A stretch of DNA of 64,000 nt from Bryobacterales bacterium (lineage in GTDB: Bacteria; Acidobacteriota; Terriglobia; Bryobacterales; UBA6623). The stretch spans positions 1,773,632 through 1,837,631 of the forward strand of contig CBDEST010000005.1 in the NCBI GenBank assembly GCA_965242625.1, given 5' to 3'. Shown here in pieces: positions 1 through 64,000 of the stretch. Both the position numbers and the translations under genes were made by a program. The notes beneath the pieces were generated by a model. That model had not been told where the DNA came from, searched no databases, and saw only the letters and a program-made list of their open reading frames with translations. Position 1 is the stretch's first letter. Every line of letters begins with the position of its first letter.

Positions 1-288
1 CGACGCGTACCTGGCCCGCCCGCCACAGCCGGGGCTCGCCCGCTGCGGCGAGCGCCGGCGGTACAGGGGAAGGTGCCGCGCGAGCGTCATCTGGCCCACT
101 CCTAAAGGGCTGCCAGCAGCTCCGTGGACTCTGCGCACCGCTGCCCGAAGTTTTCCTTATGGCATGACACGGCCCCGATAGAGCGCTGACCGCAACGGAA
201 GTGACAGACCCGCAGACCGCCGGGCGGATCGGACATTCAAATTTCGCTCCGACACGAGAGGCGACAGTCTTGACAATCGCACATACGT

Positions 289-651
289 TTGGGACGATGC
301 CACACAGTGCCCATACTGAGACCCGAGCATGAGTATCATCGATCGTCGTTCGTGCCGTTAGCCGAGTGGGCGGCAACGCGGCTCGGCAATGCCGCTGAGT
401 GTTTGTGGCCCTACGGCTGGACGGACGATGATCGCTATTCCGGCTACGCCCTGATCCGGCCAGCTACCGGAGACAGCTACGGACTCAAGCTCCTCGCCCG
501 CGAGTTCGATCTGCCTGCCCCACTTCGGACGATGGCGGCAAAGCTCCCGGAGGTTGCGGAACACTCGGACCAGCCGCCGCTCAGACGGGCGGCCGTTCGC
601 CGTGCCGAAGCCCACGACCGCCGAGGGACGCTGGAGGGCGTGCCTCTATGA
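289..651 (+). CDS. hypothetical protein
   Basis: ORF 289-651; an internal ATG at 330 gives MSIIDRRSFVPLAEW.... Its stop overlaps the start of the next ORF (ATGA at 648-651), suggesting coupling. No recognisable motif. Confidence 0.25.
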   Translation: MGRCHTVPILRPEHEYHRSSFVPLAEWAATRLGNAAECLWPYGWTDDDRYSGYALIRPATGDSYGLKLLAREFDLPAPLRTMAAKLPEVAEHSDQPPLRRAAVRRAEAHDRRGTLEGVPL

Positions 652-1031
652 CGCCATTGCTACGGGCCCTGCTCAATCTCTATCTGCTCGCCATGATACC
701 CGTGATCGCCGGAGTAGTCGTCTGGCGATGGAAGCGCGGCTACCACCTGTGGGATATGCTCCCCGATGGAGTCGTGCTCGCATACCTCGCTCCCTTCGCC
801 GGTAAGCTCGCACTGGAGCGGAACAGTGGCACCGAGTTCAGTGCTTTGGACTGGTCCGGATTGGCGGCCGCTGCCTTAAGTGCTTTGGTGCTGGTACTGG
901 ACCGGACTAGCGCTCATCGAATGGCGCTCCGATTGTGGATCGGCGATGGCTTGCCATGGGCCGATGCGCTCGCCGTTGCGAAAGAGATTAACGCGAAGGC
1001 CAAGGCGGCCATCCGCAAGAAGAAATCGTGA
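648..1031 (+). CDS. small integral membrane protein, hypothetical
   Basis: 127-aa ORF with hydrophobic stretches (LLRALLNLYLLAMIPVIAGVVVW, VVLAYLAPFAG, LAAAALSALVLVL) and a basic tail (KAKAAIRKKKS). Its start overlaps the upstream stop. Confidence 0.4.
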   Translation: MTPLLRALLNLYLLAMIPVIAGVVVWRWKRGYHLWDMLPDGVVLAYLAPFAGKLALERNSGTEFSALDWSGLAAAALSALVLVLDRTSAHRMALRLWIGDGLPWADALAVAKEINAKAKAAIRKKKS

Positions 1032-6260: not shown

Positions 6261-9200
6261 ATGATCGCCGGACCGCTCGGCAAAGTACTTGAAGCCACTG
6301 GGTACTTGGTGAACGGCCAAGGAGCTGCGCCCAGCGTTGGGCTGGCCGACTCCGGCACGCATGCCCGCCTTCATTCGTTTGAGCCCGATGCTTGGTGGCG
6401 AGGCAATATCGATGCAAACAGTGGGGGGACCGGCGGCCCCACCGTCTATTTCAAGTACGCACGTGAACCCCAAGACTCCCACGTGGCCGACTGGCAGAGG
6501 GAGGTCTGGAACCAAGGGTCGTCCCCGCTGCTGTGGGTGGTCTCTCCCGAGCGGACCGCACTGTACAACGGCTTCGGTGAACCACGACCGGCAGCAGAGG
6601 CCCAAGCGAATCGGCTTGACACCTTCCAGCACGTTGAGCGGGACTTGGCGCGGCTCGACGCACGCGCTGGTCGCCTCGCAATGGAAACGGGCCACTTTTG
6701 GTCCCAAGAAAAACGTGTCGATCGGAAGACTCGGGTGGACAGTCGCTTGTTGCGGGACCTGCAGCTCCTCGAGAGCACGTTGCTCAGATCCGATCTCGCC
6801 CGAGACCAAGCTCAGGCTCTGATCGGCCGATGCATATTCGCCCAGTACCTCGTCGACTGCAAGATCGTGACCAGTGATCAACTGAGTGGACTGTGCGGTC
6901 AGTCCACACTGCCGGACTTGTTATCCGACCGAGCGGGAACCGAGAGCCTGTTCGCATGGTTGTCCGAGAAGTTCAATGGCGACATGTTTCCCCCCGAGGC
7001 GACATCCGTACCTGACTCGCAGCATATTGAATTGGTAGCGAGTTTCCTGCGAGGGGAGGATCTAGAGACCGGCCAGCTGCACTTCTTCCCATATCGCTTC
7101 GACGTGATTCCGGTCGAACTCGTCAGTGCCATCTACGAGCAATTCGTGCATTCGGCCAGCGCGGATGCAACGGGTGCGAAGCCGGCCCGTAGCCGAGGTC
7201 TGTGCTACACGTCGCTAGCGGCTGTCTCGCTAGTGCTCGACGAGGTCTGCGATGGTTTGGCCGGCGACGAAACAGTCCTGGACCTGTCCTGCGGGTCTGG
7301 TGTGTTCCTCATCGAGGCCTTGCGACGGCTGGTGCAGGCCAAGGCCCGCGGCGGCGCCTTGAGCCGCTCAGCGATCCGGCAGGCCCTGTACAACCAAATC
7401 TACGGCGTCGACATCGAAGAAGCCGCCGTGCGCGTCGCAGCGTTCAGCTTGTATCTGGCGGCTATGGAACTCGATCCCCAGCCGCAACAGCTCGATGACA
7501 TCCAGTTCGAACCGTTGCGCGACAGGACGCTGCTCGTGGGCAGTGCCCGGAACGTTGAGAGAACATCCGCTGGACAGAGGGCCTTGACTCGCGGCGGGGA
7601 ATTGAAAAAGTTCGACATCATCGTGGGCAATCCGCCGTGGACCTACCGAGAGAGGGCTGGGACGGTGACCCGCCGGGACGCCATCCCGGGAAAGCCGCTG
7701 CAATCGCGGGGCCAAGGCCTTGCTTTTGTGGCACGGGGCAGGGAATTCGCGCACGACCGGACTCGGTTCGGGATGGTGCTGAGCGCAACGCCGTTCTTCA
7801 GCCTCAGCAGCACCACCATGGAGGCCGTGTGGCAGACCGTCGAGGAGCTTGCACCGGTGACACTGGTTAATCTCTCCGCCCTCTCGAAGTGGTTGATCCC
7901 GCGGGCGAACATGCCGGCAATCGTCCTTCTCGCACGCCATCGCGATCGGCCCAAGCATCGCATGACGCTCGTCCAGGCTCACTGGTCGCATGCCGGAGAG
8001 CGAAGCCGCACGATCGAACTCTCGCCAAACGACGTCGTCACGTTGCCGATCGCTAGTTGGAAGCGCTGTTCCGGACTATTCAAAGCGGCATTCGTCGGGC
8101 AAAAGCCGGATCTGCTGCTCTTGGACCAGCTCGTGGAGGATCATAAGCCCTTGGGGGTGCAACTCAAGAATCTGGGTACTCAACTGAGGGCCGGGTTGAC
8201 ATTCGGTAATCGCAGTCGGGACGCCACGTTTCTGAAGGGGTTGCCATTCGCCCGGAGAGACGCCACCGGGCCGTTCTCATTGGAGATCGACGAACTGCCT
8301 GCGTTCAGCGACGACCGAGCGGAGCGCCCCCGGAACCGCGGCATCTACCGTGCGCCGCTGCTTCTCGTGAATGAGTTTGTACGGCAAGTGCCGCTTCCCA
8401 GGATCGTCGTGGCTGTCGCGGAGCGAGACGTTGTATACACAAGTGCCATATTCGGTGCCTCTTTCGCTCGTTCGCAGTTGGAGATCGCGTACCTCGTCGC
8501 CGGCATTCTTGGTTCAGCGATGGCATCGTGGTACGTGCTGATGACTGGGTCTACGTTAGGACTGTGGATGCAGCGACTAAGGCCGAACGAGATCAATAGA
8601 ATTCCGGTGCCCCCGCTCGAACCGAGCGTCGAGTCAGGCGCGGGTCAGCGCGTGATGCGACTTGTTCGCGACTTCCATCGACAGCCGCCCGGTCCCGATG
8701 AGTGGAAGGCACTCGATGCAGCCGTGTTCGATCTCTACAGGCTGGATGACGAGGACCGCATGGTCGTTCGCGACGGCCTGTTGCGGGCCAGTTGGCAGTG
8801 GAAGGAAGGGCGGAGTAGATCCGTCGAACCAGTCGGTGTGAACGAGCTTCAGACCTATGCGCGAGCCTTCCTTACTTCGATGGACGTATGGTTCTCCGCA
8901 TTGAACCGGAGGCGCATGCGCGCAATAATTTACGACCTTCCAGAAGGTGCGACTCACCGTGTCGTTCGGTTCGTAGTGGAGGACCGGCCGGGTCCATCCG
9001 TGTGCGAGGTCAGCGAGGCCCAACGCCCGTTGCGGTCCGTGCTAGCGGAGATTAGCGCCCGAACGGAAGCAGATGTCGTGAATGCGTTAGTTGGAAAGAG
9101 AGAACTGCGCGTTCACTCCCACGACGAAGTGTCGCTCATCAAGCCAGCGGCCCTCCGGCATTGGCTGGGAGTTTGCGGCTTGGAGGATGCGGGCTTGGTA

Positions 9201-9428
9201 GTCAGAGACGGCGCGCGAGACATGGGGTCGACTTCATGTATGACCGCCCCTCGCAGCCACTCGTGGCGGGACGGAAGCACTTCGACATCGGCCCAGAACG
9301 ACATGCCTTCGTTCTCCAGCTACTCGATGACAGGTGGGTACGATCTTCCGAGGGTCGAGGGGTCAATCCAGGAGTGGGCGAAGCAGAGATCACGGAGTGC
9401 TTGCGAGACAGCACGCAAGAGGTCCTGA
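6261..9428 (+). CDS. N6-adenine DNA methyltransferase, tandem paralog of 2186-5161
   Basis: Same motifs as the first copy (LDLSCGSGVFL, IVGNPPWTY) and roughly 85-90% aa identity by eye. The homologous end is near 9235. The ancestral TGA is lost (TTCATG instead of TTGATG), so the ORF runs 64 extra codons out of frame over the nuclease gene to 9428. Confidence 0.8.
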   Translation: MIAGPLGKVLEATGYLVNGQGAAPSVGLADSGTHARLHSFEPDAWWRGNIDANSGGTGGPTVYFKYAREPQDSHVADWQREVWNQGSSPLLWVVSPERTALYNGFGEPRPAAEAQANRLDTFQHVERDLARLDARAGRLAMETGHFWSQEKRVDRKTRVDSRLLRDLQLLESTLLRSDLARDQAQALIGRCIFAQYLVDCKIVTSDQLSGLCGQSTLPDLLSDRAGTESLFAWLSEKFNGDMFPPEATSVPDSQHIELVASFLRGEDLETGQLHFFPYRFDVIPVELVSAIYEQFVHSASADATGAKPARSRGLCYTSLAAVSLVLDEVCDGLAGDETVLDLSCGSGVFLIEALRRLVQAKARGGALSRSAIRQALYNQIYGVDIEEAAVRVAAFSLYLAAMELDPQPQQLDDIQFEPLRDRTLLVGSARNVERTSAGQRALTRGGELKKFDIIVGNPPWTYRERAGTVTRRDAIPGKPLQSRGQGLAFVARGREFAHDRTRFGMVLSATPFFSLSSTTMEAVWQTVEELAPVTLVNLSALSKWLIPRANMPAIVLLARHRDRPKHRMTLVQAHWSHAGERSRTIELSPNDVVTLPIASWKRCSGLFKAAFVGQKPDLLLLDQLVEDHKPLGVQLKNLGTQLRAGLTFGNRSRDATFLKGLPFARRDATGPFSLEIDELPAFSDDRAERPRNRGIYRAPLLLVNEFVRQVPLPRIVVAVAERDVVYTSAIFGASFARSQLEIAYLVAGILGSAMASWYVLMTGSTLGLWMQRLRPNEINRIPVPPLEPSVESGAGQRVMRLVRDFHRQPPGPDEWKALDAAVFDLYRLDDEDRMVVRDGLLRASWQWKEGRSRSVEPVGVNELQTYARAFLTSMDVWFSALNRRRMRAIIYDLPEGATHRVVRFVVEDRPGPSVCEVSEAQRPLRSVLAEISARTEADVVNALVGKRELRVHSHDEVSLIKPAALRHWLGVCGLEDAGLVVRDGARDMGSTSCMTAPRSHSWRDGSTSTSAQNDMPSFSSYSMTGGYDLPRVEGSIQEWAKQRSRSACETARKRS

Positions 9429-9913: not shown

Positions 9914-10320
9914 CACTGACTGGGACAACCGAGGCCAGCCAGTGGCCATCGACCGGTTGGCGGACGGCCGCCCAGCGTCAATTCGGGATGTCGAGAAAGT
10001 GCATAGGCGCAGCTGCCGTCATCATCCGACGGACCTGCTCGGGTTGGTGGTTCTGGAACGGGGGCGGGTCGCGAGTCTCTTCGAACGAGAGACGAGCGTC
10101 CGTGTTGGCTGTCAAGGGTGACGAATTCAGGAGCAAGGGAATCCAGTGGGCTTGCGGCCCTCCCCATCGAGCCGGGCGGTCTGCCACAGGCGGTCGTTAC
10201 TGAGCACTCGGGAGAGGGTGGTGGGCAGCCGATGCTCGGGCCCGGCCGCTCCGGCCGCTATCGCGCGAGCTCAAGTCGGCGGCTGACACGCCGTATCTGG
10301 AATTCCGTCTCGCCTGCCAC

Positions 10321-10773
10321 CAGAGAACATGACCTCTGGCCAGTTAAGAATGTTAAGGAATTTCCAACTCTTGAGCCAGAGAGCGGAAGCTGTCGGAATC
10401 CTTGATCAGTCTCGATCGGATCGTTTCGATGGAGCGGAACGGCCTGCCTGCACGGGTTGGAAGCACCAAGATCCGGACCGTGCGTGAGCGCGCCCCCTCC
10501 GAACGCTACGCCTCACCGACGCAAATCGTGATCCCAGCTAGCTGTCCGCCACGAAACAGCCCCTTCGACGAAGGCTCGCGTAACCGGCGCGGTAGTCCGC
10601 CACTGCGCTCCTCGCTGGATCCGCGTTCGTCCGCTGCGGGGCCGAAATCATTATCACGGTCGCTGGCCGGCTACGGCTCTCCGGCGCGTGTCCAGCTCAC
10701 CCCAAAGGCCTTGTTTCACCTAGCCTTTTCGCGAAGCGACCGCCACGACCGACCGTCGGCGTCATGTCGTCTG
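10321..10773 (-). mobile_element. MITE-like element, copy B (453 bp, inverted relative to copy A)
   Basis: TIRs CAGAGAACATGAC (10321-10333) and GTCATGTCGTCTG (10761-10773). Flanked by a direct repeat GCCAC (10316-10320 and 10774-10778). Confidence 0.75.
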
Positions 10774-11147
10774 GCCACCGGAACTACTCGCAACGTGAGT
10801 TGGCAGCGGCGATAGGCGCTACCGAAGCCGCCGCCGCGCTGTCCCGGTTCCGTGCGCCGGTCTGAAGCGGTTGGGTAACGCCGGTGCCCCATCCCCAAGG
10901 CTCAGGGACTCAAGTGTCGGAGGTCGCACCTACGAGGCATCCACAAGGTTCTAGCTTTGCTCCGGACGGGATGTTCGCGTCCGCTCGGAATCCCTAACGG
11001 GGCATGCATAGAATCAAGAGGGGCGAGTCCTCGTCGTGCCGACACGCGTTTCGCGCCGTTGCGGACGCAACGGCAGCTGCGATAATCAATCGAGAGTCGT
11101 TTCAAGCGGTGTGTCATGCCAAACAGCGATGCCGCCGGATACCAGTC

Positions 11148-12359
11148 ATGCCTGACGAGCGTTTAGTCACTCGGGTCGTCTTGCGGGACTATAAGAGCAT
11201 CGCGGCGTGCGATGTCGCACTAGCACAGGTCACGTTCCTCGTGGGGCGGAACGGATCGGGCAAGACGAATTTCCTAAACGCCTTGCGCTTGGTGGCCGAC
11301 GGACTTCGCGGATCCTTGGAGCACGCTCTCAGCGAACAACTCGGCATCCTTGCGATTCTGAGGCGACTGGAGTCCGGGGCGATGGCTGACTCGTTTGGAA
11401 TTCGACTCGATTGCAGTATTCCTGACGCATCGATTCGGTACGCGTTCACGGTGGGAGCGAGCAAGGGAAACGGGGGGTTTGAGGTTCAACGAGAGGATTG
11501 CTACATTAGATCAAGAAATCCCGAGAAGGCGCAATTCTACTCCATCAGAGAAGGAGTCGTGTTCGATAGCAGTATTGATCATCCACCGGCCGCGGCTCCC
11601 GATAGACTGTATTTGCTTACTGCTTCTGGACGAGAAGAGTTTCGGCCAGCGTACGATGCGTTGTCAGGCATCAGCTTATTTGATATTGGTCCAGCAGCAG
11701 TGCGAGCGCCAGCGAGACTTGGTAATGACGATACCCACAAGGATGACAGCAATGTTGCGGGTGTTCTAGCTAGATTGGAAAGTCAATTTCCAGACATCAA
11801 ACACCGCATTGAAAAATACATGAGCGTGATCGTACCCGGACTCACTGGGGTCAACAGCGTTCCATTCAGAGATCTACGTTTCATTGAGTTTCATCAATCC
11901 TATCCCAGCGGAGCTATCCGTTTCTTGGCCCCCAGCATGTCGGATGGGACAATGCGGGCTCTAGCGATTCTAACGGCACTCTTTGAAAATGTGAGTAGAG
12001 ACGGTTTATCCCGGAACCTCGTAGGCATAGAGGAACCGTCGAATGCATTACATCCAGCCGCTTATGAGGCACTCATGGATGGCATCTATGACGCCTCGCA
12101 CCACACTCAGATCATCGCCACAAGCCACAGTCCAACTTTGCTGGACAGCGCATACATTCGCCCTGAGTCGATCCTCGCGGTGACCTCTGACCAAGGTAGG
12201 ACATATATCGGCCCCCTAGATGATGTCAAGCGATCCTATCTGGAGAGGAAACTCTTTTCTCTGGGTGAACTCCTGACAGGAGACCAGCTGTCTCCAAGCA
12301 CCAATGTCTTCGGTGCGGGTTCGGATCGAATCGACCTTTTCGATGACGAAGGGACTTGA
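11148..12359 (+). CDS. AAA_15/AAA_21-type (SMC/ABC-like) ATPase, orphan
   Basis: Likely start MPDERLV at 11148. Walker A is LVGRNGSGKTNFLNALRL. SDGTMRALAILTALF and LVGIEEPSNALHP (Walker B/D-loop) plus IATSHSPTLLDS are typical of defence-associated AAA_21 ATPases. GC is visibly lower than in the flanks. Confidence 0.75.
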   Translation: MPDERLVTRVVLRDYKSIAACDVALAQVTFLVGRNGSGKTNFLNALRLVADGLRGSLEHALSEQLGILAILRRLESGAMADSFGIRLDCSIPDASIRYAFTVGASKGNGGFEVQREDCYIRSRNPEKAQFYSIREGVVFDSSIDHPPAAAPDRLYLLTASGREEFRPAYDALSGISLFDIGPAAVRAPARLGNDDTHKDDSNVAGVLARLESQFPDIKHRIEKYMSVIVPGLTGVNSVPFRDLRFIEFHQSYPSGAIRFLAPSMSDGTMRALAILTALFENVSRDGLSRNLVGIEEPSNALHPAAYEALMDGIYDASHHTQIIATSHSPTLLDSAYIRPESILAVTSDQGRTYIGPLDDVKRSYLERKLFSLGELLTGDQLSPSTNVFGAGSDRIDLFDDEGT

Positions 12360-47841: not shown

Positions 47842-47845
47842 TCAA

Positions 47846-52222: not shown

Positions 52223-54160
52223 ATGCCGAGCGCGGATCACGGGCGGCGCGACGCCTTGCCAGTCGGCACCGTCCTGCGCGAATTCACGATCCAGGCGGTG
52301 CTCGGACACGGGGGCTTCGGGATTGTCTACCGGGCCGGGCACAACGAACTGGACCTGACGGTCGCGATCAAGGAATACCTGCCGGTGGAATTGGCCGTGC
52401 GGGAAGGCGCGACCGTGCAGCCGCGGAGCGGGACGGAGCGCAAGGACTTCGCGGAAGGGCTGCGCCGGTTCCGGGACGAAGCGCAAGCGCTGATCGATTT
52501 CGACAGCCATCCGAGCATCGTGTCGTGCCGGGAGTTCTTTCGGGCGCACGGGACGGCGTATCTGGTGATGGGGTACGAGGAGGGGCAGTCGCTGGCGGAA
52601 GTGCTGGCGAGCCGGGAAGCGGAGGGTCGCCCGTTCGCGGCGGCGGACTTGCTGGGGGTGATGCAACCCGTGCTGGAGGGGTTGGAGCGCGTCCACGCAG
52701 AGGGGGTGCTGCATCGGGATATCAAGCCGTCGAACATTTTGATCCGGCGACTGGACGGGCGGCCGGTGCTGATCGACTTCGGTGCGGCGAAGCAGGCCAC
52801 GGCGAGATTCAGCAAGTCGCAGGCGCCGTACACGGAAGGGTACGCGGCATTGGAGCAAGTGGCGGACGCGGGGAAGCTGGGGCCGTGGACGGACATGTAC
52901 GGGGTGGGAGCGGTGATGTGGCGGATGGTGGCGGGCGGGAAGCGGCCGTGGGAGCCGCCGCATCCGGTGCGCGTGGAACAGCGCTCGCATGCGGTGGTAG
53001 GGGGAACGGAAGATCCGATGCCGTCGGCGAGGGAGTTGGGCAAGGGAAGGTTTCCGTCGCAGATGCTGGAGGTCATTGACCGGTGCTTGCGGCTGCGTGA
53101 AGGGGAACGGATGCAAGGGTCGCGCGAGCTGCTGGAGGCTCTGCGCGAGGTGAGCGAGCCACTTCCGGCAGGGTCTTCAGAGGCTGCTCGGCCGCTGGCC
53201 GAGCGAACTGGTGCCAAGCGACAGGAACCGGGATCGCATGTGGTGCCAATGGGTGCAGAGCCGCGAATGGATGGGTGGATCTCGCAGCCGTGGATCCGGG
53301 ATTGGGATGCCGTGGGAGACATCCGGGATCCGGGATTCGCCGCGACAGCGCGGGCGTACGTCGAACAGTACAAGCAAGTGGCAGAGGCGAGGGTGTGGGT
53401 GGCGAAGGCTGAGGGGCTGCTGGCCGAGCTGAGGGAGTTAGAAGCGGCGAGGGCTACGCAGCGCGAGGCAGGCGAGGCGTGGACGAATTCGTTAGGCATG
53501 GAGTTCGTCTGGATTCCGGAGGGGACCTTTCTGATGGGCTCACCGATGCACGAAGTGGGTCGATTTCTTAACGAGCGACAGCACGAGGTCCGGATCAGCG
53601 AGGGCTTTTGGATAGGGAAGTATGAGGTGACGCAAGGGGAGTGGGTAGCGGTGATGGGAACAACCCCGTCGGCGTTCTCAGATTGCGGAATGCGTTGCCC
53701 GGTCGAGAGTGTTTCGTGGGACGACACGCAGGAGTTTATTTGGAAGTTGAACTCGCGGGAATCCGGGAACGGGTACGTAAACCGATTGCCGACCGAGGCG
53801 GAGTGGGAGTACGCGGCGCGGGCGGGGACACCCGGGGCACGCTACGGCGAGTTGGGCGCGATCGCGTGGTATTTGGCAAACAGCGGCAGCAGGACGCATC
53901 CGGTAGGGCAGAAGCGGCCTAACGCGTGGGGCTTGCACGACATGCTGGGAAACGTCTGGGAGTGGACGGGAGACTGGTACGGTGAGTATCCGTCTGGTCC
54001 GGTCGCAGACCCCAAAGGTCCCGAGTCGGGCGCGGCCCGGGTGGGTCGGGGCGGCAGCTGGGACCGCAACGCGAGGCTCGTTCGGTCGGCGGTTCGCGAC
54101 TACAACTCGCCCGGCGACCGCGGCAACTACTTCGGCTTCCGCCTGGTTAGGACAGAGTGA
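52223..54160 (+). CDS. Ser/Thr kinase - FGE-sulfatase protein, array copy 8 (no TM helix, no acidic linker)
   Basis: 645 aa. The kinase is joined via ...AEPRMDGWISQPWIRDWD... directly to the helical segment and the FGE domain. Variable block at 54035-54133. Confidence 0.9.
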   Translation: MPSADHGRRDALPVGTVLREFTIQAVLGHGGFGIVYRAGHNELDLTVAIKEYLPVELAVREGATVQPRSGTERKDFAEGLRRFRDEAQALIDFDSHPSIVSCREFFRAHGTAYLVMGYEEGQSLAEVLASREAEGRPFAAADLLGVMQPVLEGLERVHAEGVLHRDIKPSNILIRRLDGRPVLIDFGAAKQATARFSKSQAPYTEGYAALEQVADAGKLGPWTDMYGVGAVMWRMVAGGKRPWEPPHPVRVEQRSHAVVGGTEDPMPSARELGKGRFPSQMLEVIDRCLRLREGERMQGSRELLEALREVSEPLPAGSSEAARPLAERTGAKRQEPGSHVVPMGAEPRMDGWISQPWIRDWDAVGDIRDPGFAATARAYVEQYKQVAEARVWVAKAEGLLAELRELEAARATQREAGEAWTNSLGMEFVWIPEGTFLMGSPMHEVGRFLNERQHEVRISEGFWIGKYEVTQGEWVAVMGTTPSAFSDCGMRCPVESVSWDDTQEFIWKLNSRESGNGYVNRLPTEAEWEYAARAGTPGARYGELGAIAWYLANSGSRTHPVGQKRPNAWGLHDMLGNVWEWTGDWYGEYPSGPVADPKGPESGAARVGRGGSWDRNARLVRSAVRDYNSPGDRGNYFGFRLVRTE

Positions 54161-54206: not shown

Positions 54207-54676
54207 GGGGCGTGCGTGAGCAAGCGAAGGCCGGAGCGAAAGCGACCGAGCCGAGCTGCGGAACGCACGCCTTGGCATGGACTGCCCGTTGATCGCGGAT
54301 CCGGGCAGTGCGGCGGCGGTCGGAGTCTCCGAGAATGCCAGATTGAATCTTCTCTTCCCTGCGGTAGGCGAAGGGCGGTTTGAGCAAAGCTGAAATGTCC
54401 GGTGCGGTCGTGGACTGCGGCTTCGGCTCTTCCGTTGCGGTCGAACCCTCCATCGGGGCTCCCTTCCTAGGGAAAAATCGGAAGCACAGGGTGCAGTCTG
54501 GGAAACCCGTGCGCTTTCCGGAGGAAAGGCTGTGCATGGACTACGGCTTGGTGCGCCAGAGTGTGGAAGCGCGGCTTTGCGTGAGTGAAGGCATGATCTT
54601 CAAGGAGAGCCGAATGCGGGAAATCCGCACGCTCGGTTCCGCGAGCGGGGAGCGGAAACGCAATCGAGGTGGAGAC
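54207..54676 (+). repeat. group II intron relic R8
   Basis: Standard unit. Domain V at 54607-54639. Confidence 0.65.
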
Positions 54677-54904
54677 TGAGGCACGGGCACGGGGGCGAGA
54701 GCTGTCGGAGAACCGCCACCCCCTCCATCCTTGACAAGCGCGCCTCTCTTTGGCTTCACCTCAGAAACCCGATGATCCGCGGGATCTGTCTCCCGCGCTG
54801 GCAGTACGCCAGCGCGAAGGCGCACCGCTGGGGTGCGATAATCACGGCAATTGTCGGCCAGCCGCCCGCGGCCGCTTGCGGAAGCGCGGCCCAGCGATGA
54901 CTCC

Positions 54905-56887
54905 ATGCCGAGCGCGGATTACGGGCGGCGCGACGCCTTGCCAGTCGGCACGGTCCTGCGGGAATTCACGATCCAAGCGGTGATCGGCCACGGGGGCTTC
55001 GGGATCGTCTACCGGGCCGGGCACAACGAACTGGAGCTGACGGTCGCGATCAAGGAATACCTGCCGGTGGAACTGGCCGTGCGCGAAGGCACGGCCGTGC
55101 AGCCGCGGAGCGGAACGGAGCGCAAGGACTTTGAGGAGGGGCTGCGCCGGTTCCGGGACGAAGCGCAAGCGCTGATCGATTTCGACAGCCATCCGAGCAT
55201 CGTGTCGTGCCGGGAGTTCTTTCGGGCGCACGGGACGGCGTATCTGGTGATGGGGTACGAGGAGGGGCAGTCGCTGGCGGAAGTGCTGGCGAGCCGGGAA
55301 GCGGAGGGTCGACCGTTCGCGGCGGCGGACTTGCTGGGGGTGATGCAGCCGGTGCTGGAGGGGTTGGAGCGCGTCCATGCAGCAGGCGTGCTGCATCGGG
55401 ATATTAAGCCGTCGAACATCCTGATCCGGCGGCGGGACGGGCGGCCGGTGCTGATTGACTTCGGAGCGGCGAAGCAGGCCACGGCCAGGTTCAGCAAGTC
55501 GCAGGCGCCGTACACGGAAGGGTACGCGGCATTGGAGCAAGTGGCGGACGCGGGGAAGCTGGGGCCGTGGACCGACATGTACGGAGTGGGAGCGGTGATG
55601 TGGCGGATGGTGGCGGGCGGGAAGCGGCCGTGGGAGCCGCCGCATCCGGTGCGCGTGGAACAGCGCTCGCATGCTGTGGTGGGCGGAACGGAAGACCCGA
55701 TGCCGTCGGCGAGGGAGCTGGGCGAGGGGAGGTTTCCGTCGCAGATGCTGGAGGTCATTGACCGATGCTTGCGATTGCGGGAAGGGGAGCGGATGCAAGG
55801 CTCGCGCGAGCTGCTGGACGCGCTTCGTGGGGTGGGCGAGCTGCCATTGGCAGGATCCACAGTAGACGCTCGGCCGTCGGCCGAGCGAACTGGTGCCAAT
55901 CGACGGGAAGCTGGGGCGCATGTGGTGCCAGTGGGTGCAGAGCCGCGAATGGATGGGTGGATCGCGCAGCCGTGGATCCGGGATTGGGACGCTCTGGGTG
56001 ACATCCGGGGTCCAGGGTTTGCCAATACGGCGCAGGCGTACATCGAACAGTACAAGCAGGTGCGTGAAGCGAGCGTGTGGGTAGCCAAGGCGGAAGGGCT
56101 ATTGGCCAAGCTGAAGGAGGTGGAAGTGGCGGGCCCTAAGCAGCGCGAGGCTGGCGAGTCGTGGATCAATTCGCTAGGCATGGAGTTCGTATGGATTCCG
56201 GCGGGGAACTTCCTGATGGGCTCACCGAAGAACGAAGAAGGTCGTGAACACCATGAGCGTCAGCACGAGGTTCGGATCAGCGAGGGCTTCTGGATAGGGA
56301 AGTACGAGGTAACGCAGGGCGAGTGGGAGGCGGTGATGGGAACGAACCCGTCTCATTTTTCCAATCGCGGCCTGCGGTGCCCGGTGGAGAGTGTGTCTTG
56401 GGACGACCTGCAGGCGTTCATACGGAGGTTGAACGAGCGCGAATCAGGGTGGGGAGTGTACCGCTTGCCGAAGTTCATACGGAGGTTGAACGGGAGTGGG
56501 CATGTTTACCGATTGCCAACGGAGGCGGAGTGGGAATACGCGGCACGGGCCGGGTCGTCCGGAATCCGCCACGGGGAGTTGGACGAAATCGCGTGGTACT
56601 CGGACAACAGCGACGATGCGACTCATCCAGTCGGCCACAAGCTGGCGAACGCGTGGGGCTTGCACGACATGCTGGGAAACATCTGGGAGTGGACGGGAGA
56701 TCGGTACGGTGAGTATCCGTTTGGTTCGGTAAGGGATCCCCGAGGTCCACGACTGGGCTCGTACCGGGTGGTTCGGGGCGGCAGCCGGGGCAGCCTCGCT
56801 AGGCACGTTCGGTCGGCGTTTCGCGACGGCAACTCGCCCGGCAACCGCAGCAGCTACATCGGCTTCCGCTTGGTCAGGACAGAGTGA
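54905..56887 (+). CDS. Ser/Thr kinase - FGE-sulfatase protein, array copy 9 (no TM helix; internal 57-bp duplication in the FGE domain)
   Basis: The homologous start MPSADYGRRD is at 54905; the track ORF opens at 54851. It has the same TM-less junction as copy 8. Tandem duplication FIRRLNERESGWGVYRLPK / FIRRLNGSGHVYRLP at 56417-56524. Variable block at 56762-56860. Confidence 0.85.
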   Translation: MPSADYGRRDALPVGTVLREFTIQAVIGHGGFGIVYRAGHNELELTVAIKEYLPVELAVREGTAVQPRSGTERKDFEEGLRRFRDEAQALIDFDSHPSIVSCREFFRAHGTAYLVMGYEEGQSLAEVLASREAEGRPFAAADLLGVMQPVLEGLERVHAAGVLHRDIKPSNILIRRRDGRPVLIDFGAAKQATARFSKSQAPYTEGYAALEQVADAGKLGPWTDMYGVGAVMWRMVAGGKRPWEPPHPVRVEQRSHAVVGGTEDPMPSARELGEGRFPSQMLEVIDRCLRLREGERMQGSRELLDALRGVGELPLAGSTVDARPSAERTGANRREAGAHVVPVGAEPRMDGWIAQPWIRDWDALGDIRGPGFANTAQAYIEQYKQVREASVWVAKAEGLLAKLKEVEVAGPKQREAGESWINSLGMEFVWIPAGNFLMGSPKNEEGREHHERQHEVRISEGFWIGKYEVTQGEWEAVMGTNPSHFSNRGLRCPVESVSWDDLQAFIRRLNERESGWGVYRLPKFIRRLNGSGHVYRLPTEAEWEYAARAGSSGIRHGELDEIAWYSDNSDDATHPVGHKLANAWGLHDMLGNIWEWTGDRYGEYPFGSVRDPRGPRLGSYRVVRGGSRGSLARHVRSAFRDGNSPGNRSSYIGFRLVRTE

Positions 56888-57635: not shown

Positions 57636-59654
57636 ATGCCGAGCGCGGATCACGGGCGGCGCGACGCCTTGCCAGTCGGCACGGTCCTGCGTGAGTTCAC
57701 GATCCAAGCGGTGCTCGGACACGGGGGCTTCGGGATCGTCTACCGGGCCGGGCACGACGAACTGGACCTGACGGTCGCGATCAAGGAATACCTGCCGGTG
57801 GAGCTGGCCGTGCGGGAAGGCACGACCGTGCAGCCGCGGAGCGGGACGGAGCGCAAGGACTTCGAGGAGGGGCTGCGACGGTTCCGGGACGAAGCGCAAG
57901 CGCTGATCGATTTCGACAGCCATCCGAGCATCGTGTCGTGCCGGGAGTTCTTTCGGGCGCACGGGACGGCGTATCTGGTGATGGGGTACGAGGAGGGGCA
58001 GTCGCTGGCGGAAGTGCTGGCGAGCCGGGAAGCGGAGGGACGACCGTTCGCGGCGGCGGACTTGCTGGAGGTGATGCGGCCGGTGCTGGAGGGGTTGGAG
58101 CGCGTCCACGCAGCGGGGGTACTGCATCGGGATATCAAGCCGTCGAACATCCTGATCCGGCGGCGGGACGGGCGGCCGGTGCTGATCGACTTCGGAGCGG
58201 CGAAGCAGGCCACGGCGAGGTTCAGCAAGTCGCAGGCGCCGTACACGGAGGGGTACGCGGCATTGGAACAAGTGGCGGACGCGGGGAAACTGGGACCGTG
58301 GACGGACATGTACGGGGTGGGAGCGGTGATGTGGCGGATGGTGGCGGGCGGGAATCCGCCGTGGGAGCCGCCGCATCCGGTGAGGGTGGAACAGCGCTCG
58401 CATGCGGCACTCGGAGGAACGGAAGATCCGATGCCGTCGGCGAGGGAGTTGGGCGAGGGTCGGTTTCCGTCGCAGATGCTGGAGGTCATCGACCGGTGCT
58501 TGCGGTTGCGGGAAGGGGAGCGGATGCAAGGCTCGCGCGAGTTGCTGGAGGCTCTTCGTGAGGTGAGCGAGTCGCTTCCGGCGGGGTCTCTGGAGGCCGC
58601 TCGGCCGTCGGCCGAGCAAACTGGAGTCAAGCGACAGGAACCGGGGTCGCATGTGGCGCCAGTAGGTGCAGAGCCGCGCACAGGGTGGCGACGGGGTGGA
58701 TGGATCGCGCTGGCGAACGTGGTGGTCGGACTGGGGCTGGTGACTGCCACATGGTGGGGTTCGCAGGACGGTTTCGTGCAGCCTTGGGTCCGGGATTGGG
58801 ATGCCTTGGATGACATCAATGCCCCTGACTTTGACCTGACGGCCCAGGCGTACATCGAACGGTACAAACAGGTGCCTGGGGCCAGCGTGTGGGTAGCCCA
58901 AGCGGAGGGGCTGTTGTCCAAGCTGAGAGACTTGGACGCGGCGAGAGCAATGCAGCGCGAGGCAGGCGAGGCGTGGGTGGATTCATTAGGCATGGAGTTC
59001 GTCTGGATTCCAGCGGGGAACTTCCTGATGGGTTCTCCGGAGGACGAAGAGGGTCGTTTCCCCAATGAGCGTCAACACGAGGTGCGGATCAGCGAGGGGT
59101 TCTGGATTGGGAAGTACGAGGTGACCCAAGGGGAGTGGGAGGCGGTGATGGGAACGAACCCGTCGCATTTTTCCGATTGCGGTCCGCGGTGCCCAGTAGA
59201 GGAAGTGTCTTGGGTCGATACGCAGGAGTTCATACGGAGGGTGAACTCGCGGCAATCCGGGAGGGGGTACTTCTATCGATTGCCGACAGAGGCGGAGTGG
59301 GAGTACGGGGCGCGGGCGGGGACGCCCGGGGCGCACTACGGCGAGTTGGACATGATCGCGTGGTATTCGGCGAACAGCGGCAGGAGGACGCATCCGGTAG
59401 GGCAGAAGCGGCCTAACGCGTGGGGCTTGCATGACATGCTGGGAAACGTGTGGGAGTGGACGGGAGACTGGTACGGCGCGTATCCGTCTGGTGCGGTGAC
59501 GGATCCCGGAGGTTCCGAGTCGGGCTCGCTCCGGGTGGATCGGGGCGGCGGCTGGGGCGGCTACGCGGGAAGCGTTCGGTCGGCTAGTCGCCGCCACCGC
59601 TCGCCCGGCTTCCGTGGCGGCTTCATCGGCTTCCGCTTGGTCATGACAGAGTGA
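57636..59654 (+). CDS. Ser/Thr kinase - TM - FGE-sulfatase protein, array copy 10 (TM present, acidic linker deleted)
   Basis: 672 aa. ...LVTATWWGSQDGFVQPWVRDWD... marks the deletion junction. Variable block at 59529-59627. Confidence 0.9.
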   Translation: MPSADHGRRDALPVGTVLREFTIQAVLGHGGFGIVYRAGHDELDLTVAIKEYLPVELAVREGTTVQPRSGTERKDFEEGLRRFRDEAQALIDFDSHPSIVSCREFFRAHGTAYLVMGYEEGQSLAEVLASREAEGRPFAAADLLEVMRPVLEGLERVHAAGVLHRDIKPSNILIRRRDGRPVLIDFGAAKQATARFSKSQAPYTEGYAALEQVADAGKLGPWTDMYGVGAVMWRMVAGGNPPWEPPHPVRVEQRSHAALGGTEDPMPSARELGEGRFPSQMLEVIDRCLRLREGERMQGSRELLEALREVSESLPAGSLEAARPSAEQTGVKRQEPGSHVAPVGAEPRTGWRRGGWIALANVVVGLGLVTATWWGSQDGFVQPWVRDWDALDDINAPDFDLTAQAYIERYKQVPGASVWVAQAEGLLSKLRDLDAARAMQREAGEAWVDSLGMEFVWIPAGNFLMGSPEDEEGRFPNERQHEVRISEGFWIGKYEVTQGEWEAVMGTNPSHFSDCGPRCPVEEVSWVDTQEFIRRVNSRQSGRGYFYRLPTEAEWEYGARAGTPGAHYGELDMIAWYSANSGRRTHPVGQKRPNAWGLHDMLGNVWEWTGDWYGAYPSGAVTDPGGSESGSLRVDRGGGWGGYAGSVRSASRRHRSPGFRGGFIGFRLVMTE

Positions 59655-59702: not shown

Positions 59703-60061
59703 GGACGTGCGTCGGCCAACGAAGGCCGAATCTTCTCTTCCCTTCGGTAGCCAATGGGCGGGTGGAGCGACGCTGCAATGTACGGTTGGGTCGGGGCCTG
59801 CGGCGTCGGCCATTCCGTTGCGGTCGAACCCTCCCTCGGGGTCTCCGTTGCTGAGGGAAATCGGAAGCTCTGGGTGCTGTCCGGGAAGCCCGTGCGCTTC
59901 CCAGGGGAGAGGCTGTGGATGGACTTCGGCTCGGCACGCCTGAGTGAGCGGAAGCGTAGCTTCGCGTGAGCGAAGGTCGGATCTGGAACGAGAGCCGCGT
60001 GCGGGAAATCCGCACGCTCGGTTTGAAGTGTGGAGAGCGGAAACGAAGTCAAGGTGGAGAC
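59703..60061 (+). repeat. group II intron relic R10 (with an internal ~110-bp deletion)
   Basis: Standard unit missing the segment after GAAGGCCG. Domain V at 59992-60024, ending GGTTT instead of GGTTC. Confidence 0.6.
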
Positions 60062-60286
60062 CGAGGGGCCGGCACAGGGGAGAAAGCCGTTGGTGAACGG
60101 CTACTCCCTCAATCCTCGATAACGCCTCTCTTGGGCTCCATCTCAGAAACCAGATGATCCGCGGGATCCGTCGGCCGCGCTGGCAGTACGCCAGCGCGGA
60201 GGCGCGCCAGTGGGGTGCGATAATCACGGCAATCGTCGGCCAGCCGCCCGCGGCCGCTTGCGGAAGCGCGGCCCAGCGATGACTCC

Positions 60287-61416
60287 ATGCCGAGCACGGA
60301 TCACGGGCGGCGCGACGCCTTGCCAGTCGGCACGGTCCTGCGGGAATTCACGATCCAAGCGGTGCTCGGGCACGGGGGCTTCGGGATCGTCTACCGGGCC
60401 GGGCACAACGAACTGGAGCTGACGGTCGCGATCAAGGAATACCTGCCGGTGGAACTGGCCGTGCGGGAAGGCACGACCGTGCAGCCGCGGAGCGGGACGG
60501 AGCGCAAGGACTTCGCGGAGGGGCTGCGACGGTTCCGGGACGAAGCGCAAGCGCTGATCGATTTCGACAGCCATCCGAGCATCGTGTCGTGCCGGGAGTT
60601 CTTTCGGGCGCACGGGACGGCGTATCTGGTGATGGGGTACGAGGAGGGGCAGTCGGTTCCGATTCCGAGGGAACGGTACGCGATCAAGCACCTGCAGGAG
60701 CCTCCGATGGCGTTGGAGACGAGAGTGCGGTTCCTGAGCGAGGGGATCGAGGCATGGAGTTTGCCTGGATTCCGGCGGGGGACTTCCTGATGGGCTCCCC
60801 GGAGGACGAAGAGGTTCAATATAACGATGAGCGTCCGCACGAGGTGTGGATCAGCAAGGGATTTTGGATAGGGAAGTACGAGGTGACGCAAGGGGAGTGG
60901 GAAGCGGTGATGCGAACGAATCCGGCGCATTCTTCCTGTCGCGGCCCGCGGTGCCCAGTGGCGGGAGTGTCTTGGGTCGATACGCAGGAGTTCATACGGA
61001 GGGTGAACGTGCGGGAATCCGGGAGCGGGTACGTGTACCGGTTACCGACCGAGGCGGAGTGGGAATACGCGGCACGGGCCGGGATGTCCGGAACCCGCTA
61101 CGGAGAGTTGGACGAAATCGCGTGATACAGGGGCAACAGCGGCTGGAGGAAGCATCCAGTCGGACAGAAGCGGGCAAACGCGTGGGGCTTGCACGACATG
61201 CTGGGAAACGTGTGGGAGTGGACGGGAGACCGGTACGGCGCGTATCCGTCTGGTCCGGCGACGGATCCCGGAGGGTCCGAGTCGGGCCTGGCCCGGGTGC
61301 TTCGGGGCGGCGGCTGGAATAGTCACGCGAGGGTCGTTCGGTCGGCGACTCGCCTCAACCTCTCGCCCGGCACCCGCAGCCTCATCATCGGCTTCCGCTT
61401 GGTCAGGACAAAGTGA
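60287..61416 (+). pseudogene. Ser/Thr kinase - FGE-sulfatase gene, array copy 11, degraded
   Basis: The kinase reads for 123 codons. A large deletion then joins it out of frame to the linker/FGE part (frame of ORF 60589-61125). TGG is changed to TGA at 61123-61125, where the other copies have IAW. The 3' end is still colinear (ORF 61189-61416), with a variable block at 61291-61389. Confidence 0.8.
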
Positions 61417-62280
61417 CACTTGGTGCTATTACCCTTTCACCCTCGGACGCGCGAAGCACGAGGAGGGCGTGCATTGGCTAGCGAAGGCCGGACCGAAAGC
61501 GACCGAGCCGAGTGGCAGCCCAGGCGACAGCACAGGTCCGAGCAGCGAGCCTTGACTAGCGAGGTGTTGGAAGACCCGCACAATCCCCCAAGCCAGAAAC
61601 CACGCTGGACGCCAACCCGGGCCAGATGTCCTCGATACGGGAGATTCTCGGAGCGGCTAGAATCAAGTGAAAACTCGGGACTTCGGTGGGAGGCGCGTTG
61701 AGAAGTTGCTATACTGCGTAGTGCCGATGAAGGAACGCGCAAAGCGGCCGCCCCGTGTCGAAAACTTTCTATAGCCAAACCTTTGGCTGTCAGACAAGCG
61801 TCCGTGACAGCGCGACGGTACAATTGCCTCGCAGAACTCGAGGCCACGAAGAGGTAGCTTCGTCAGAGGAGGGTGGAATGCTGCTCTACGACACACGCAG
61901 TACTCGCGATCACGCCGAACAGAAGGCCTCCTCTCGCCGAACCCCAGCTAGGCATCGCACGTCGGTCACGATTGCCGCGGTCGTCGGTCTTGTGGTCCAG
62001 CCCTGCGGAGAGGACATCTTCAGATTCTCCATACAAGTTGGCCTCGTCAGTTCGGGTCGCCACACCTCGATGTCGTCGAGCGTGCTCCATTTGATTCAAA
62101 CCGGGCGACCGCATCTTGTCGGCTTGCGCATTGAAACCGCCCAGATACTGGATGTTCCGCATGCCGCGCGCGACTGTCCGCACATCACGTATCTGAGCGT
62201 TGGAATTATCGTTGGCCGCAATAGATTCTGTACCGACTGCGTTGTGGCACGGAAACTCACAGAATGAGGAGGTATCAGGC

Positions 62281-64000
62281 ATGAAGATCGAAGGCATCGA
62301 AATCAAAAATTTCCGTGGAATCAAGCGAGCTAGAGCGACACAGCTCGGCGACCTAGTAGTGTTGGTGGGGCCTAACGGTTCGGGGAAATCGTGTATCCTA
62401 GACGCTATACGACTGATCAAGTCGGTGTATGGCGGCTATCAAGCTAACGAATGGGATCTATGGATGGGAGAGTTCCAAATAGGCAAGACGACGAAGCAGT
62501 GGGAATTCAAGCAGTTACTGCGCGATGTTAATGAGCCCGCTGAACTCAAATTGGAAGTGCGACTCTCAGAGAGAGAAGTTGAATATCTGCGCGAGAAGCA
62601 ATTTGACTTGATGGAAGAACAAGCATTCTTGGCACTGTATCCGGGGCAAGATGTTTCGAGATGGCATCGTATCAAACGGGAGGGCCAACTACTGGATGCT
62701 GATACAAGAACGGCCATTGAGAACGCAAGAGTACGATTCCAAGAGCAACTCAATAGTGAATTAAGCCAGTTTTCTCACACGGCTCACGTAAGAATTCATC
62801 AGACAGGGCAACTTAAGTTAAGTCAATGCTTGACTTTAACTGCCGTGTGGCGGACATTTCAACTTGGCCGAGTTGGAGTGATCGACTACCATGGATCGCA
62901 CAGAAACTATGCGCGAGAGGCTATCGGTGGGATCAATTTGAATCTACAGAGCCAAGAAGAACAGCAAAGACAGCATGCATTATACAATTATAGTAACAAA
63001 TATACAAACATCAAGACGGAGATGGCAACAGAGTATGTTCAGGAGACGCTTCGAAAAAAGAGCGGTCAGCGGCAGAGGCAGCAAGGACAGACATTGGAGG
63101 AGACCCTAAGGGTATTGTTTAAGACATTTTTCCCGGGCAAGGAGTTTACCGGAGCGCAGGCTGATCCCGACGGTAGTCTTAAGTTTCCAGTTAATATCGG
63201 AAGCATAGAACATGACATAAACGAATTATCCTCAGGGGAGAAGGAGATCCTATATGGATACCTCAGATTACGTAGATCAGCACCTAGCGATTCAATAATC
63301 CTGCTTGATGAGCCAGAGCTCCATCTCAATCCAAAGCTCATACAGGGCCTCCCACAGTTCTATGAGCAATATTTGGTGCGAGCCTTAGGAAACCAAATGT
63401 TGCTGGTTACACATTCCGATGCACTATTGCGGGAAGCACTAACCGTGTCGAGAGCTACAGTGCTTCACATGCAGGAATCGAAGGAGGACAAGCATACGGA
63501 AAACCAATTGAGGCGAGTGGAAGAACATCAAGATGAAGAACATGTGGTGATGGAATTAGTCGGAGATATTGCGGGATATAGGCCTGGCGGTAAGGTGGTT
63601 ATATTCGAGGGAATCAACGCTGGATTCGATGTCAGGATGACGACAAGACTATTCCCCGAGTTTGATCGAACGATGAACTTCATTGCAGGAGGCGGCCGCG
63701 AGGGTGTGGAGCGACTCCATAAATGTTTGGAATCTCAAGACGGTGGAGTGGGAATTGAAATCTATTCAATCGTCGATAAAGACTGGCATGAAAAACGAGA
63801 AGGCAGGAACAGATTTAGCTGGGATGTATACCACATCGAAAACTATCTGCTTGACGCAACGTACATTCTTGATGTAGTTAGAGAAATCACACTGGAGAAT
63901 ATTCAATTAAATGAAGCAAGAGAAGTGGAAGAGATATTGCGCGAACTCGCCCAAAGTCAAATCGACGAACTGGTGCGCATTCAAATCCAATCGAGCGTGA
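62281..64000 (+). CDS. SMC/ABC-like AAA ATPase with a C-terminal DUF4435/Toprim-like region (OLD-family-like), 3'-partial
   Basis: ATG at 62281 is preceded by GAGGAGG. Walker A is LVGPNGSGKSCILDAIRL, the signature-like motif is LSSGEKEILYGYLRL, and Walker B is IILLDEPELHLNP. The tail reads VVIFEGINAGFD ... IYSIVDKDW ... WDVYHIENYLLD, typical of DUF4435. GC is low. The frame is open to the window end and is not in the ORF track because it is incomplete. Confidence 0.75.
   Translation, partial: MKIEGIEIKNFRGIKRARATQLGDLVVLVGPNGSGKSCILDAIRLIKSVYGGYQANEWDLWMGEFQIGKTTKQWEFKQLLRDVNEPAELKLEVRLSEREVEYLREKQFDLMEEQAFLALYPGQDVSRWHRIKREGQLLDADTRTAIENARVRFQEQLNSELSQFSHTAHVRIHQTGQLKLSQCLTLTAVWRTFQLGRVGVIDYHGSHRNYAREAIGGINLNLQSQEEQQRQHALYNYSNKYTNIKTEMATEYVQETLRKKSGQRQRQQGQTLEETLRVLFKTFFPGKEFTGAQADPDGSLKFPVNIGSIEHDINELSSGEKEILYGYLRLRRSAPSDSIILLDEPELHLNPKLIQGLPQFYEQYLVRALGNQMLLVTHSDALLREALTVSRATVLHMQESKEDKHTENQLRRVEEHQDEEHVVMELVGDIAGYRPGGKVVIFEGINAGFDVRMTTRLFPEFDRTMNFIAGGGREGVERLHKCLESQDGGVGIEIYSIVDKDWHEKREGRNRFSWDVYHIENYLLDATYILDVVREITLENIQLNEAREVEEILRELAQSQIDELVRIQIQSSV

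Follow-up and report, generated by a model that had tools for sequence, protein, structure and literature searches.

Diversity-generating retroelements (DGRs) that serve several target genes, including targets that lie away from the reverse transcriptase (RT), have been described in a number of bacteria. The HRDC-containing 'Architecture C' DGR of Treponema denticola has seven non-adjacent targets, and a DGR of Stenotrophomonas sp. has eight tandem targets beside its RT, an arrangement that, as the authors caution, could be an artefact of assembly (Wu et al. 2018, PMC5758913). In Thiohalocapsa sp. PB-PSB1, 15 targets are distributed over nine loci with several template repeats (TRs), and some of these loci have neither RT nor TR and are acted on in trans (Dore et al. 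2024, PMC10907252). Cyanobacterial DGRs possess remote variable proteins that combine a Ser/Thr kinase with a domain of the C-type-lectin kind (CLec), and conserved 3' cis features have been proposed to recruit such remote targets (Vallota-Eastman et al. 2020, PMC7517822). A survey of metagenome-assembled genomes recorded up to six targets per genome (PMC11661182), and remote targets escape any survey that is confined to the neighbourhood of the RT (Roux et al. 2021, PMC8144416); arrays like the one described here are therefore under-counted. Remote and multiple DGR targets are already established, and this array, which lies in 64,000 nucleotides of a Bryobacterales genome (contig CBDEST010000005.1, positions 1,773,632 to 1,837,631; hereafter the window), is a large new example and not a new mechanism. 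It consists of ten blocks that we read as the variable repeats (VRs) of one DGR family, each forming the lectin end of one of a series of tandem Ser/Thr kinases, and the DGR core that serves it probably lies outside the window on the same 6.73-Mb chromosome and acts in trans on all ten VRs, a reading to which we assign a probability of about three in four.

When a profile built from nine copies of the variable block was run over the window with nhmmer, exactly ten blocks were found, all on the plus strand, in agreement with the count given in the original prediction (Table 1). According to Pfam, the genes that carry the VRs encode an N-terminal Pkinase domain and a C-terminal FGE-sulfatase domain of the C-type-lectin fold, which reaches the C terminus; the VR falls within the final ~36 codons, and the stop codon lies 18 nt 3' of it. 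Intact kinase-lectin open reading frames (ORFs) belong to only 8 of the 10 VRs, c42 being split and c61 being a pseudogene in which residues 1-124 are read in one frame and residues 375-403 and 541-761 in another (tblastn). The kinase 5' region occurs in 11 copies in the window, and a kinase-only stump (43608-44684) has been cut off by the insertion of a low-GC SIR2-STAND gene. A larger segmental duplication has also added to the array: over 2.9 kb, the spacer 27734-30599 has 94.5% identity to the spacer 35912-38780. In the alignment of the VRs, fixed bases are broken by NNC codons, with the variation falling on positions one and two of AAC-type codons and the third position fixed.

From this pattern an explicit TR had been predicted by placing adenine at every variable base, and the prediction held up well. 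Translated in the VR frame and searched against protein databases, the predicted TR retrieves short spurious ORFs that have been called on TRs; the best match (P0121) comes from L083, a metagenome contig of 2,469 bp on which bAvd, RT and TR follow one another in this order, and the real TR of this contig is identical to the predicted one at 106 of 108 bases, with near-identical TRs in two further loci, L086 and L087. In L083 the TR/VR homology goes beyond the 108-nt block by 11 nt on its upstream side (AGTCGGGCTCG) and by 8 nt on its downstream side (YTGGTCAG), and the 127-nt TR expected on this basis reads AGTCGGGCTCGAACCGGGTGAATCGGGGCGGCAGCTGGAACAACAACGCGAGGAACGTTCGGTCGGCGAATCGCAACAACAACTCGCCCGGCAACCGCAACAACAACATCGGCTTCCGCYTGGTCAG. 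The TR starts ~15 nt after the RT stop codon in all three loci, of which L086 is the canonical one, with two targets followed by HRDC, bAvd, RT and TR. The TR of the source genome is expected to match AGTCGGGCTCGAACCGGGTGAATCGGGGCGGCAGCTGGAACAACAAC...ATCGGCTTCCGCYTGGTCAG and to be followed by a CACGCGATGG-like sequence. In the TR of L083, adenines coincide with variable VR columns in 31 of 33 cases, compared with 9 of 95 for non-adenines (Fisher p=2.5e-19), and the bases found at TR-adenine sites in the VRs of the window are A 131, G 101, T 56 and C 42. The two VRs of L086 (6848-7012 and 8778-8941) are identical to each other, and at six non-adenine positions their own TR has another base, as where the VRs read TCG GCG and the TR reads TCT GCC; at the TCG GCG site they are closer to the inferred TR of the window than to their own. 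Exact IUPAC scans for the VR/TR scaffold in genome and metagenome contig collections gave 0 matches, the family being either absent there or masked.

Mean pairwise identity among the ten VRs is 94.4% at non-adenine positions and 30.7% at adenine positions, and it is 85.3% over the 150 nt upstream of the VR, 79.3% at 150-300 nt upstream and 84.6% over the 48 nt downstream. In c51 and c54, 77/77 non-adenine positions are those of the inferred TR, and the flanks of these two copies deviate from the consensus at 9-12 of 150 nt; with its 0 non-adenine mismatches, c51 looks recently rewritten. Judged from the sequences, the uniformity of the VRs at non-adenine sites fits repeated replacement from one template. 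Current diversification of the array may be read from this uniformity in comparison with the flanks, which is its only indirect signal and falls short of proof. Comparison of the window with a 95%-identical contig of a relative yields one clean orthologous VR pair, that of c56 and the copy ending at L001:9234, because the two arrays have recombined. In this pair the VR is identical at 108/108 positions and the 400 nt upstream at 99.8%. The c56 protein has Arg in place of the conserved Trp of GGSW and is probably an inactive copy; c56 may be either dead or recently exchanged.

The window itself does not contain the core, as the original prediction had stated for the TR, Avd and intact RT. No eleventh VR or TR copy was found on either strand of the window with the VR profile; the same profile detects the genuine TR of an unrelated locus, L018, at E=3e-12, and a TR in the window would therefore have been detected. 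Similarly, a self-BLAST scan, which recovers the true TR/VR pairs of L018, L038 and L051, found no repeat pairs with adenine-biased mismatches in the window. Searches of the window for a DGR RT, Avd or HRDC gave a best E=0.09 by tblastn with the source genome's own proteins, and family hidden Markov models (HMMs) made from 120 RTs and 18 Avds gave a best E=2.8 when run on every stop-to-stop ORF of the window with a length of 40 aa or more. Six-frame Pfam searches of the spacers 23411-25888, 27734-30599, 32889-33628 and 47322-49194 gave no RVT match at E<=0.1; of the spacer in the right flank (61417-64000), the Pfam scan covered only the long ORF that starts at 62281, and the six-frame coverage left out 1-21000, 38781-42142 and the spacer 35912-38780, the near-identical duplicate of a scanned one. 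Within the window, the array has flanks of 21 kb and 2.6 kb, and no core was found in either.

Core genes are present elsewhere on the same chromosome. The proteins of c23 (P0009) and c32 (P0005) and of the kinase-part ORF of c42 (P0098) match, without a single difference, database entries that are all recorded on one NCBI/ENA contig of 6,733,009 bp, and this length was used as the fingerprint by which further entries were assigned to the contig. A search with the RT of L083, followed by a listing of cluster members, led to an RT of 334 aa on this contig (P0398), in which VPIGNLTSQYF and YVRYMDD are intact. This RT shares a cluster with P0247, which has 83% identity to the RT that adjoins a bona fide TR in L083, and P0398 itself scores 113.7 bits against a group II maturase cut-off of 300; by its sequence, P0398 is a DGR-type RT. 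In addition, exact look-ups of relatives' proteins identified two Avd proteins on the contig (P0420 and P0435), which score 97.8 and 97.0 bits with NCBIfam NF033474 'DGR protein Avd' (cut-off 80), and a protein with an HRDC domain (P0417). P0420 differs at 1 of 117 residues from the Avd of a further locus, L088; P0435 is a distinct second Avd, and at 90% it clusters with the Avds of L083 and L086, both of which are cores with a TR. By analogy with L086 and L088, the Avd and HRDC genes would adjoin the RT gene in the source genome as well. The chromosome also carries at least two further kinase-lectin paralogues, of which P0115 has the same VR scaffold at the protein level and P0109 is more divergent. 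The original prediction had left two alternatives, a core that acts in trans and a core that has been lost; an intact RT, two Avd proteins and an HRDC protein on the same contig favour the former and disfavour the latter.

The arrangement of an array without an adjoining core recurs in relatives. The array of the closest relative (L001/L002) has a 5-kb segment in common with the window at 95% identity, and no DGR core was found within ~7 kb upstream or 10 kb downstream of it. A second array of six genes, L003, lies on a 3,742,625-bp contig, and no DGR core was found beside it in the ~7 kb past the last VR on one side, the other end of the locus being still inside the array; the same contig carries an RT (P0379), an Avd (P0412) and an HRDC protein (P0450), which repeats the pattern of an array without an adjoining core and core genes on the same contig. 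Two candidates in L003 were rejected: an RT of 1139 aa (15604-19023, minus strand) is not a DGR RT but the DRT1 defence RT-nitrilase (PADLOC E=3.7e-289), and a weak match to the VR profile at 20392-20505 is not a TR, since it lacks adenine enrichment and aligns as what is left of the 3' end of a further target. An AbiJ-like gene stands beside DRT1 in the flank of the L003 array, and a pair of Pycsar-like cyclase and PycTM genes is found at 16542-17992 of L002. Among 79 GTDB relative loci, a DGR RT lies near the target in only three distant ones (L018, L041 and L051) and in no close kinase-lectin relative. The nearest named relatives are metagenome genomes of Bryobacterales and Rhodothermales. 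The closest accessible core to the RT and Avd of the source is that of L088 (ENA ERZ23496579 scaffold_1674, 10001-11629), which is nearly identical to that of the source, has the order HRDC-bAvd-RT and lies next to the genes for SMC and prephenate dehydratase, away from any target.

In the mechanism that we propose, the core would consist of HRDC, bAvd, RT and, by homology with the relatives, a TR of ~127 nt directly downstream of the RT. The RT-Avd complex would copy the TR RNA with misincorporation opposite adenines, and the resulting cDNA would replace the VR of any gene that has the shared 3' homology (GGCTTCCGCYTGGTCAG) together with a VR-specific downstream element, so that a single template could act in trans on many paralogous sensors. 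For the element downstream of the VR, this is a candidate role. A conserved segment, the post-stop segment of the original prediction, follows each VR (Table 1); its first 8 nt (YTGGTCAG) are common to the relatives' TRs and the next ~40 nt (GACAGAGTGA-CACTGGGYGCTATTACCCTTTCACCCTCGG) are not found in them. It had been predicted that the TR would be followed by a similar segment, and this was not the case: in five loci (L083, L084, L085, L086 and L087) the TR/VR homology ends with ...YTGGTCAG, 8 nt past the last CGC codon, and the relatives' TRs continue past GGTCAG with unrelated sequence (CACGCGATGGCGCC..., CACGCGATGGCGCCGGAGGG...). Because of this divergence, the segment belongs to the VR side only. 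Contrary to the original claim, it is also not invariant, since the ten copies deviate from the consensus at 1-10 of 48 nt; a search with its first 24 nt, with up to 3 mismatches allowed, finds nine copies. The most degenerate copy, with 10/48 mismatches, is that of c56, the VR that is undiversified between two genomes. The segment also follows the VRs of L003 and those of L086, where the targets have other N-terminal domains (ankyrin repeats in one). As the initiation of mutagenic homing (IMH) region that the original prediction had proposed, or as a target-recognition element, it is a reasonable candidate by its sequence and placement; the position on the VR side fits this role, and the supposed invariance, on which the proposal had been based, did not stand.

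An imperfect dyad of ~63 nt with a GNRA-type centre is found ~70 nt 3' of each VR, truncated in the case of c59, and it also follows the VRs of L003 and L086. Its arms pair in 92.5% of cells, compared with 22-42% when the partners are slid, and compensatory change was seen in only 2 pairs. Single-strand folding of the VR-downstream region gave an energy no better than that of shuffled sequences, and RNAalifold proposes a candidate long-range pairing among invariant bases of this region. The dyad is accordingly no more than a hairpin or cruciform candidate. Upstream of the first target gene there is a further dyad copy (20453-20482) that is reduced to its right arm and centre, and because of this copy the unit of tandem duplication can be placed as beginning inside the dyad.

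The reading of a remote core acting in trans has to be weighed against several observations that speak against it. For the TR of the source genome, both existence and match to the prediction are extrapolated from the relatives. With the nearest available TRs, which are non-cognate, only 76-78% of the mismatches fall at adenines; the remainder are lineage-specific TR differences, two synonymous polymorphisms and private substitutions, mostly of c42 and c23, with a contribution of drift in the older copies. Several copies have non-adenine substitutions (7 in c42 and 4 in c23), and the sole clear orthologous pair, that of c56, is undiversified. L088 has unrelated sequence right after its RT stop codon and no TR, and may be a TR-less core or an assembly join; by analogy, the first core of the source may be TR-less too and the TR would then have to be supplied by the second one, and this second core is known in the source from the Avd P0435 only. 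Finally, only 2.6 kb of the window lie to the right of the last VR, and the core may be situated just past this edge. A frozen record, in which diversification belongs to the past, no functional TR is left, the RT, Avd and HRDC proteins are orphans or otherwise used and the VRs drift, would account for the lack of a TR in the core most like that of the source, for the identity of c56 in two genomes, for the 3-7 non-adenine substitutions in c42, c23, c27 and c59 and for the two targets that are pseudogenes, and it also agrees with the finding that the TR-peptide search returned no TR-encoded mini-ORF from the 6,733,009-bp contig. This last absence is weak evidence, because TR ORFs are often uncalled (L086 has none, and L087 has only an antisense ORF). 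An RT, two Avd proteins and an HRDC protein, all of full length and with intact catalytic motifs, would be unexpected in a long-dead element, P0435 clusters with the Avds of cores that have a TR, and the VRs are more uniform at non-adenine sites than their flanks, two of them with 0 non-adenine mismatches; a frozen record is therefore considered unlikely, though it is the most serious competitor of the remote core.

A core that is not remote, and that follows just past the right edge of the window as part of an ordinary DGR cassette with many tandem targets, is somewhat less likely still. The short distance from the last VR gene to the end of the window (61416 to 64000) leaves room for it, the core of L086 directly follows its targets, and the Stenotrophomonas cassette provides a precedent with eight tandem targets (PMC5758913). 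On the other hand, no DGR core follows the arrays of L002 (10 kb) or L003 (7 kb, with DRT1 instead), the L088 core stands beside the SMC and prephenate dehydratase genes and not beside a target, and the right flank of the window opens a defence ATPase gene that runs off the end. Ordinary diversifying selection with gene conversion among paralogous lectin-fold kinases, and no retroelement at all, is very improbable. Tandem paralogues, segmental duplication with nearly identical spacers and recombination between copies speak for such a process, but the variable columns coincide with the adenines of an independently recovered TR, third codon positions are fixed and first and second positions are randomised, and the base counts at TR-adenine sites are those predicted by adenine mutagenesis with partial retention.

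Table 1. Features of the 64-kb window, with the state of each VR relative to the inferred TR (A sites, adenine positions of the inferred TR; non-A, non-adenine mismatches).
Feature	Position	Strand	Host gene or remark	Basis
VR c23 (108 nt)	23285-23392	+	gene 21143-23410; 23/31 A sites changed, 4 non-A	nhmmer, alignment, Pfam
VR c27	27608-27715	+	gene 25889-27733; 22/31 A sites changed, 3 non-A	nhmmer, alignment
VR c32	32763-32870	+	gene 30600-32888; 14/31 A sites changed, 2 non-A	nhmmer, alignment
VR c35	35786-35893	+	gene 33629-35911; 20/31 A sites changed, 1 non-A	nhmmer, alignment
VR c42	42733-42840	+	lectin ORF 40870-42858, kinase part a separate ORF 38781-40391; 7 non-A, most drifted of the ten	
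VR c51	51355-51462	+	gene 49195-51480; 19/31 A sites changed, 0 non-A	nhmmer, alignment
VR c54	54035-54142	+	gene 52223-54160; 18/31 A sites changed, 0 non-A	nhmmer, alignment
VR c56	56762-56869	+	gene 54851-56887	
VR c59	59529-59636	+	gene 57636-59654; 25/31 A sites changed, 3 non-A	nhmmer, alignment
VR c61	61291-61398	+	pseudogene 60287-61416, frameshifted and internally deleted; 19/31 A sites changed, 2 non-A	
Kinase-only paralogue, 358 aa	43608-44684	+		Pfam, tblastn, composition
VR-side conserved 3' segment (example)	51463-51510	+	recurs after all ten VRs	
Imperfect dyad, ~63 nt (example)	51529-51591	+	GGCGTGCGT...GGCCGGAGC-GAAA-GCGACCGAGCC...ACGCACGCC; dyad cores start at 23475, 27791, 35976, 42923, 51544, 54224, 56952, 61481	
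Group II intron domain V-VI relic, best of six	33319-33448	+		Rfam RF00029
Other group II intron relics	25589-25708, 43308-43427, 51923-52042, 54605-54724, 59990-60109			Rfam RF00029
MmeI/Eco57I-like N6-methyltransferase genes, two paralogues of ~1000 aa	2186-5161, 6261-9428			
HEC-01A/AbiEii-like AAA_21 ATPase	11004-12359			
Type II methyltransferase and restriction enzyme	14739-16208, 16205-16885	minus		
Helix-turn-helix (HTH) and M78 peptidase gene	18912-20678	minus		
Insertion sequence (IS)-type DDE transposase (DDE_Tnp_1_4)	23752-25143	+	between first and second target genes	
HigB-like toxin, HTH (HigA) antitoxin	28056-28304, 28322-28690	+	duplicate at ~36240-36900	
SIR2-like and novel STAND NTPase 5, 823 aa	44850-47321	minus	low-GC insertion, 0.52-0.55	
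AAA_21/AAA_15 ATPase with DUF4435, single ORF running off the window end	62281-64000	+	GC 0.48	Pfam

Six remnants of group II introns accompany the kinase genes (Table 1). Two of them score 46.8 and 40.1 bits with RF00029, the gathering score of which is 40, and the other four score 28-37 bits; the catalytic helix GAGCCG...GAAA...CGGUUC is intact in the relics. Each relic ends ~180 nt upstream of a kinase gene start and is part of a repeated intergenic unit. The original prediction had regarded the RT sequences of the window as dead group II intron relics, a description that has to be revised, since the relics consist of ribozyme domains V-VI and no RT-coding remnant was found in the scanned spacers: six-frame Pfam searches detected no RVT_1 or maturase domain in the scanned relic-bearing or adjoining spacers, of which those of ~740 nt are too short for one, and the Rfam families for domains I-IV gave no match at E<=1. 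The sequence GTGCG follows the post-stop segment in c35 and c42 and is mutated in most copies. The same relics are present in the closest relative (L001 6960-7089; L002 801-938) and not in L003 or L086.

The array stands among defence genes. The left flank (1-20700) is a defence island, and the SIR2-STAND region is tied to it by an inverted repeat of 415 nt, the arms of which (10360-10774 and 47981-48395) are 86% complementary. The pair of HigB and HTH genes lies inside the duplicated 2.9-kb spacer together with an ankyrin-repeat ORF (minus strand, near 30412), and the rest of the main spacers is unannotated sequence. The ORF that runs off the right end resembles a fused PARIS-type (AriA-AriB) defence gene.

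For the study of DGRs, the locus shows that VRs by themselves suffice to recognise a target array and to predict its template, and that such a prediction can be confirmed in databases via TR mini-ORFs. It adds a ten-copy tandem set of hypervariable Ser/Thr-kinase sensors located among restriction-modification, toxin-antitoxin and STAND/SIR2 genes, which agrees with the view of cellular DGRs as a source of diversity for the intracellular 'antigen sensors' that conflict systems use, and it offers the VR-side element and the dyad as candidate cis signals for the recruitment of remote targets. A bolder interpretation, which is put forward as speculation and which we would not expect to hold in full, is that one template rewrites at least 12 kinase-lectin sensors in a defence island, which would be the largest single-scaffold target set that we found described, that two cores divide the labour, one of them being TR-less like L088 and using the TR of the other, and that the 63-nt dyad serves as a portable 'address' by which duplicated genes are recruited.

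Compared with the systems described so far, the locus shares with the DGR of Bordetella phage BPP-1 the adenine-specific mutagenesis, a 3' VR of the lectin fold, an Avd-RT core and a VR-side 3' element unlike that of the TR side. A hairpin or cruciform downstream of the BPP-1 VR reportedly aids target recognition. BPP-1 has one adjacent target and a TR upstream of the RT, and its IMH and IMH* differ at few bases, whereas here the TR/VR similarity is lost 8 nt past the block and the candidate dyad lies ~70 nt downstream. The Stenotrophomonas DGR likewise has a tandem array and one TR, and differs in that here the flanks of 21 kb and 2.6 kb contain no core. With Thiohalocapsa sp. PB-PSB1, the array has in common that the targets lie in conflict and defence contexts, that a protein-kinase domain is among them and that transposons and duplications have reshaped the loci; unlike in PB-PSB1, the ten VRs are of one scaffold and form a single tandem array, in which ongoing diversification is a candidate only. 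Similarly, the DGR of Treponema denticola combines an HRDC accessory with the RT, one TR for many targets away from the RT and a C-terminal VR of the lectin type, and it is distinguished from the present system by the Ser/Thr-kinase fusions, the ten-copy tandem array and the joint presence of Avd and HRDC found here, with the order HRDC-Avd-RT-TR in relatives. The cyanobacterial DGRs also have remote targets with many paralogues, in which an N-terminal Hanks-type kinase is joined to a C-terminal VR of the lectin fold; they belong to another host lineage, and the copies described here are arranged in tandem within a defence island and not dispersed.

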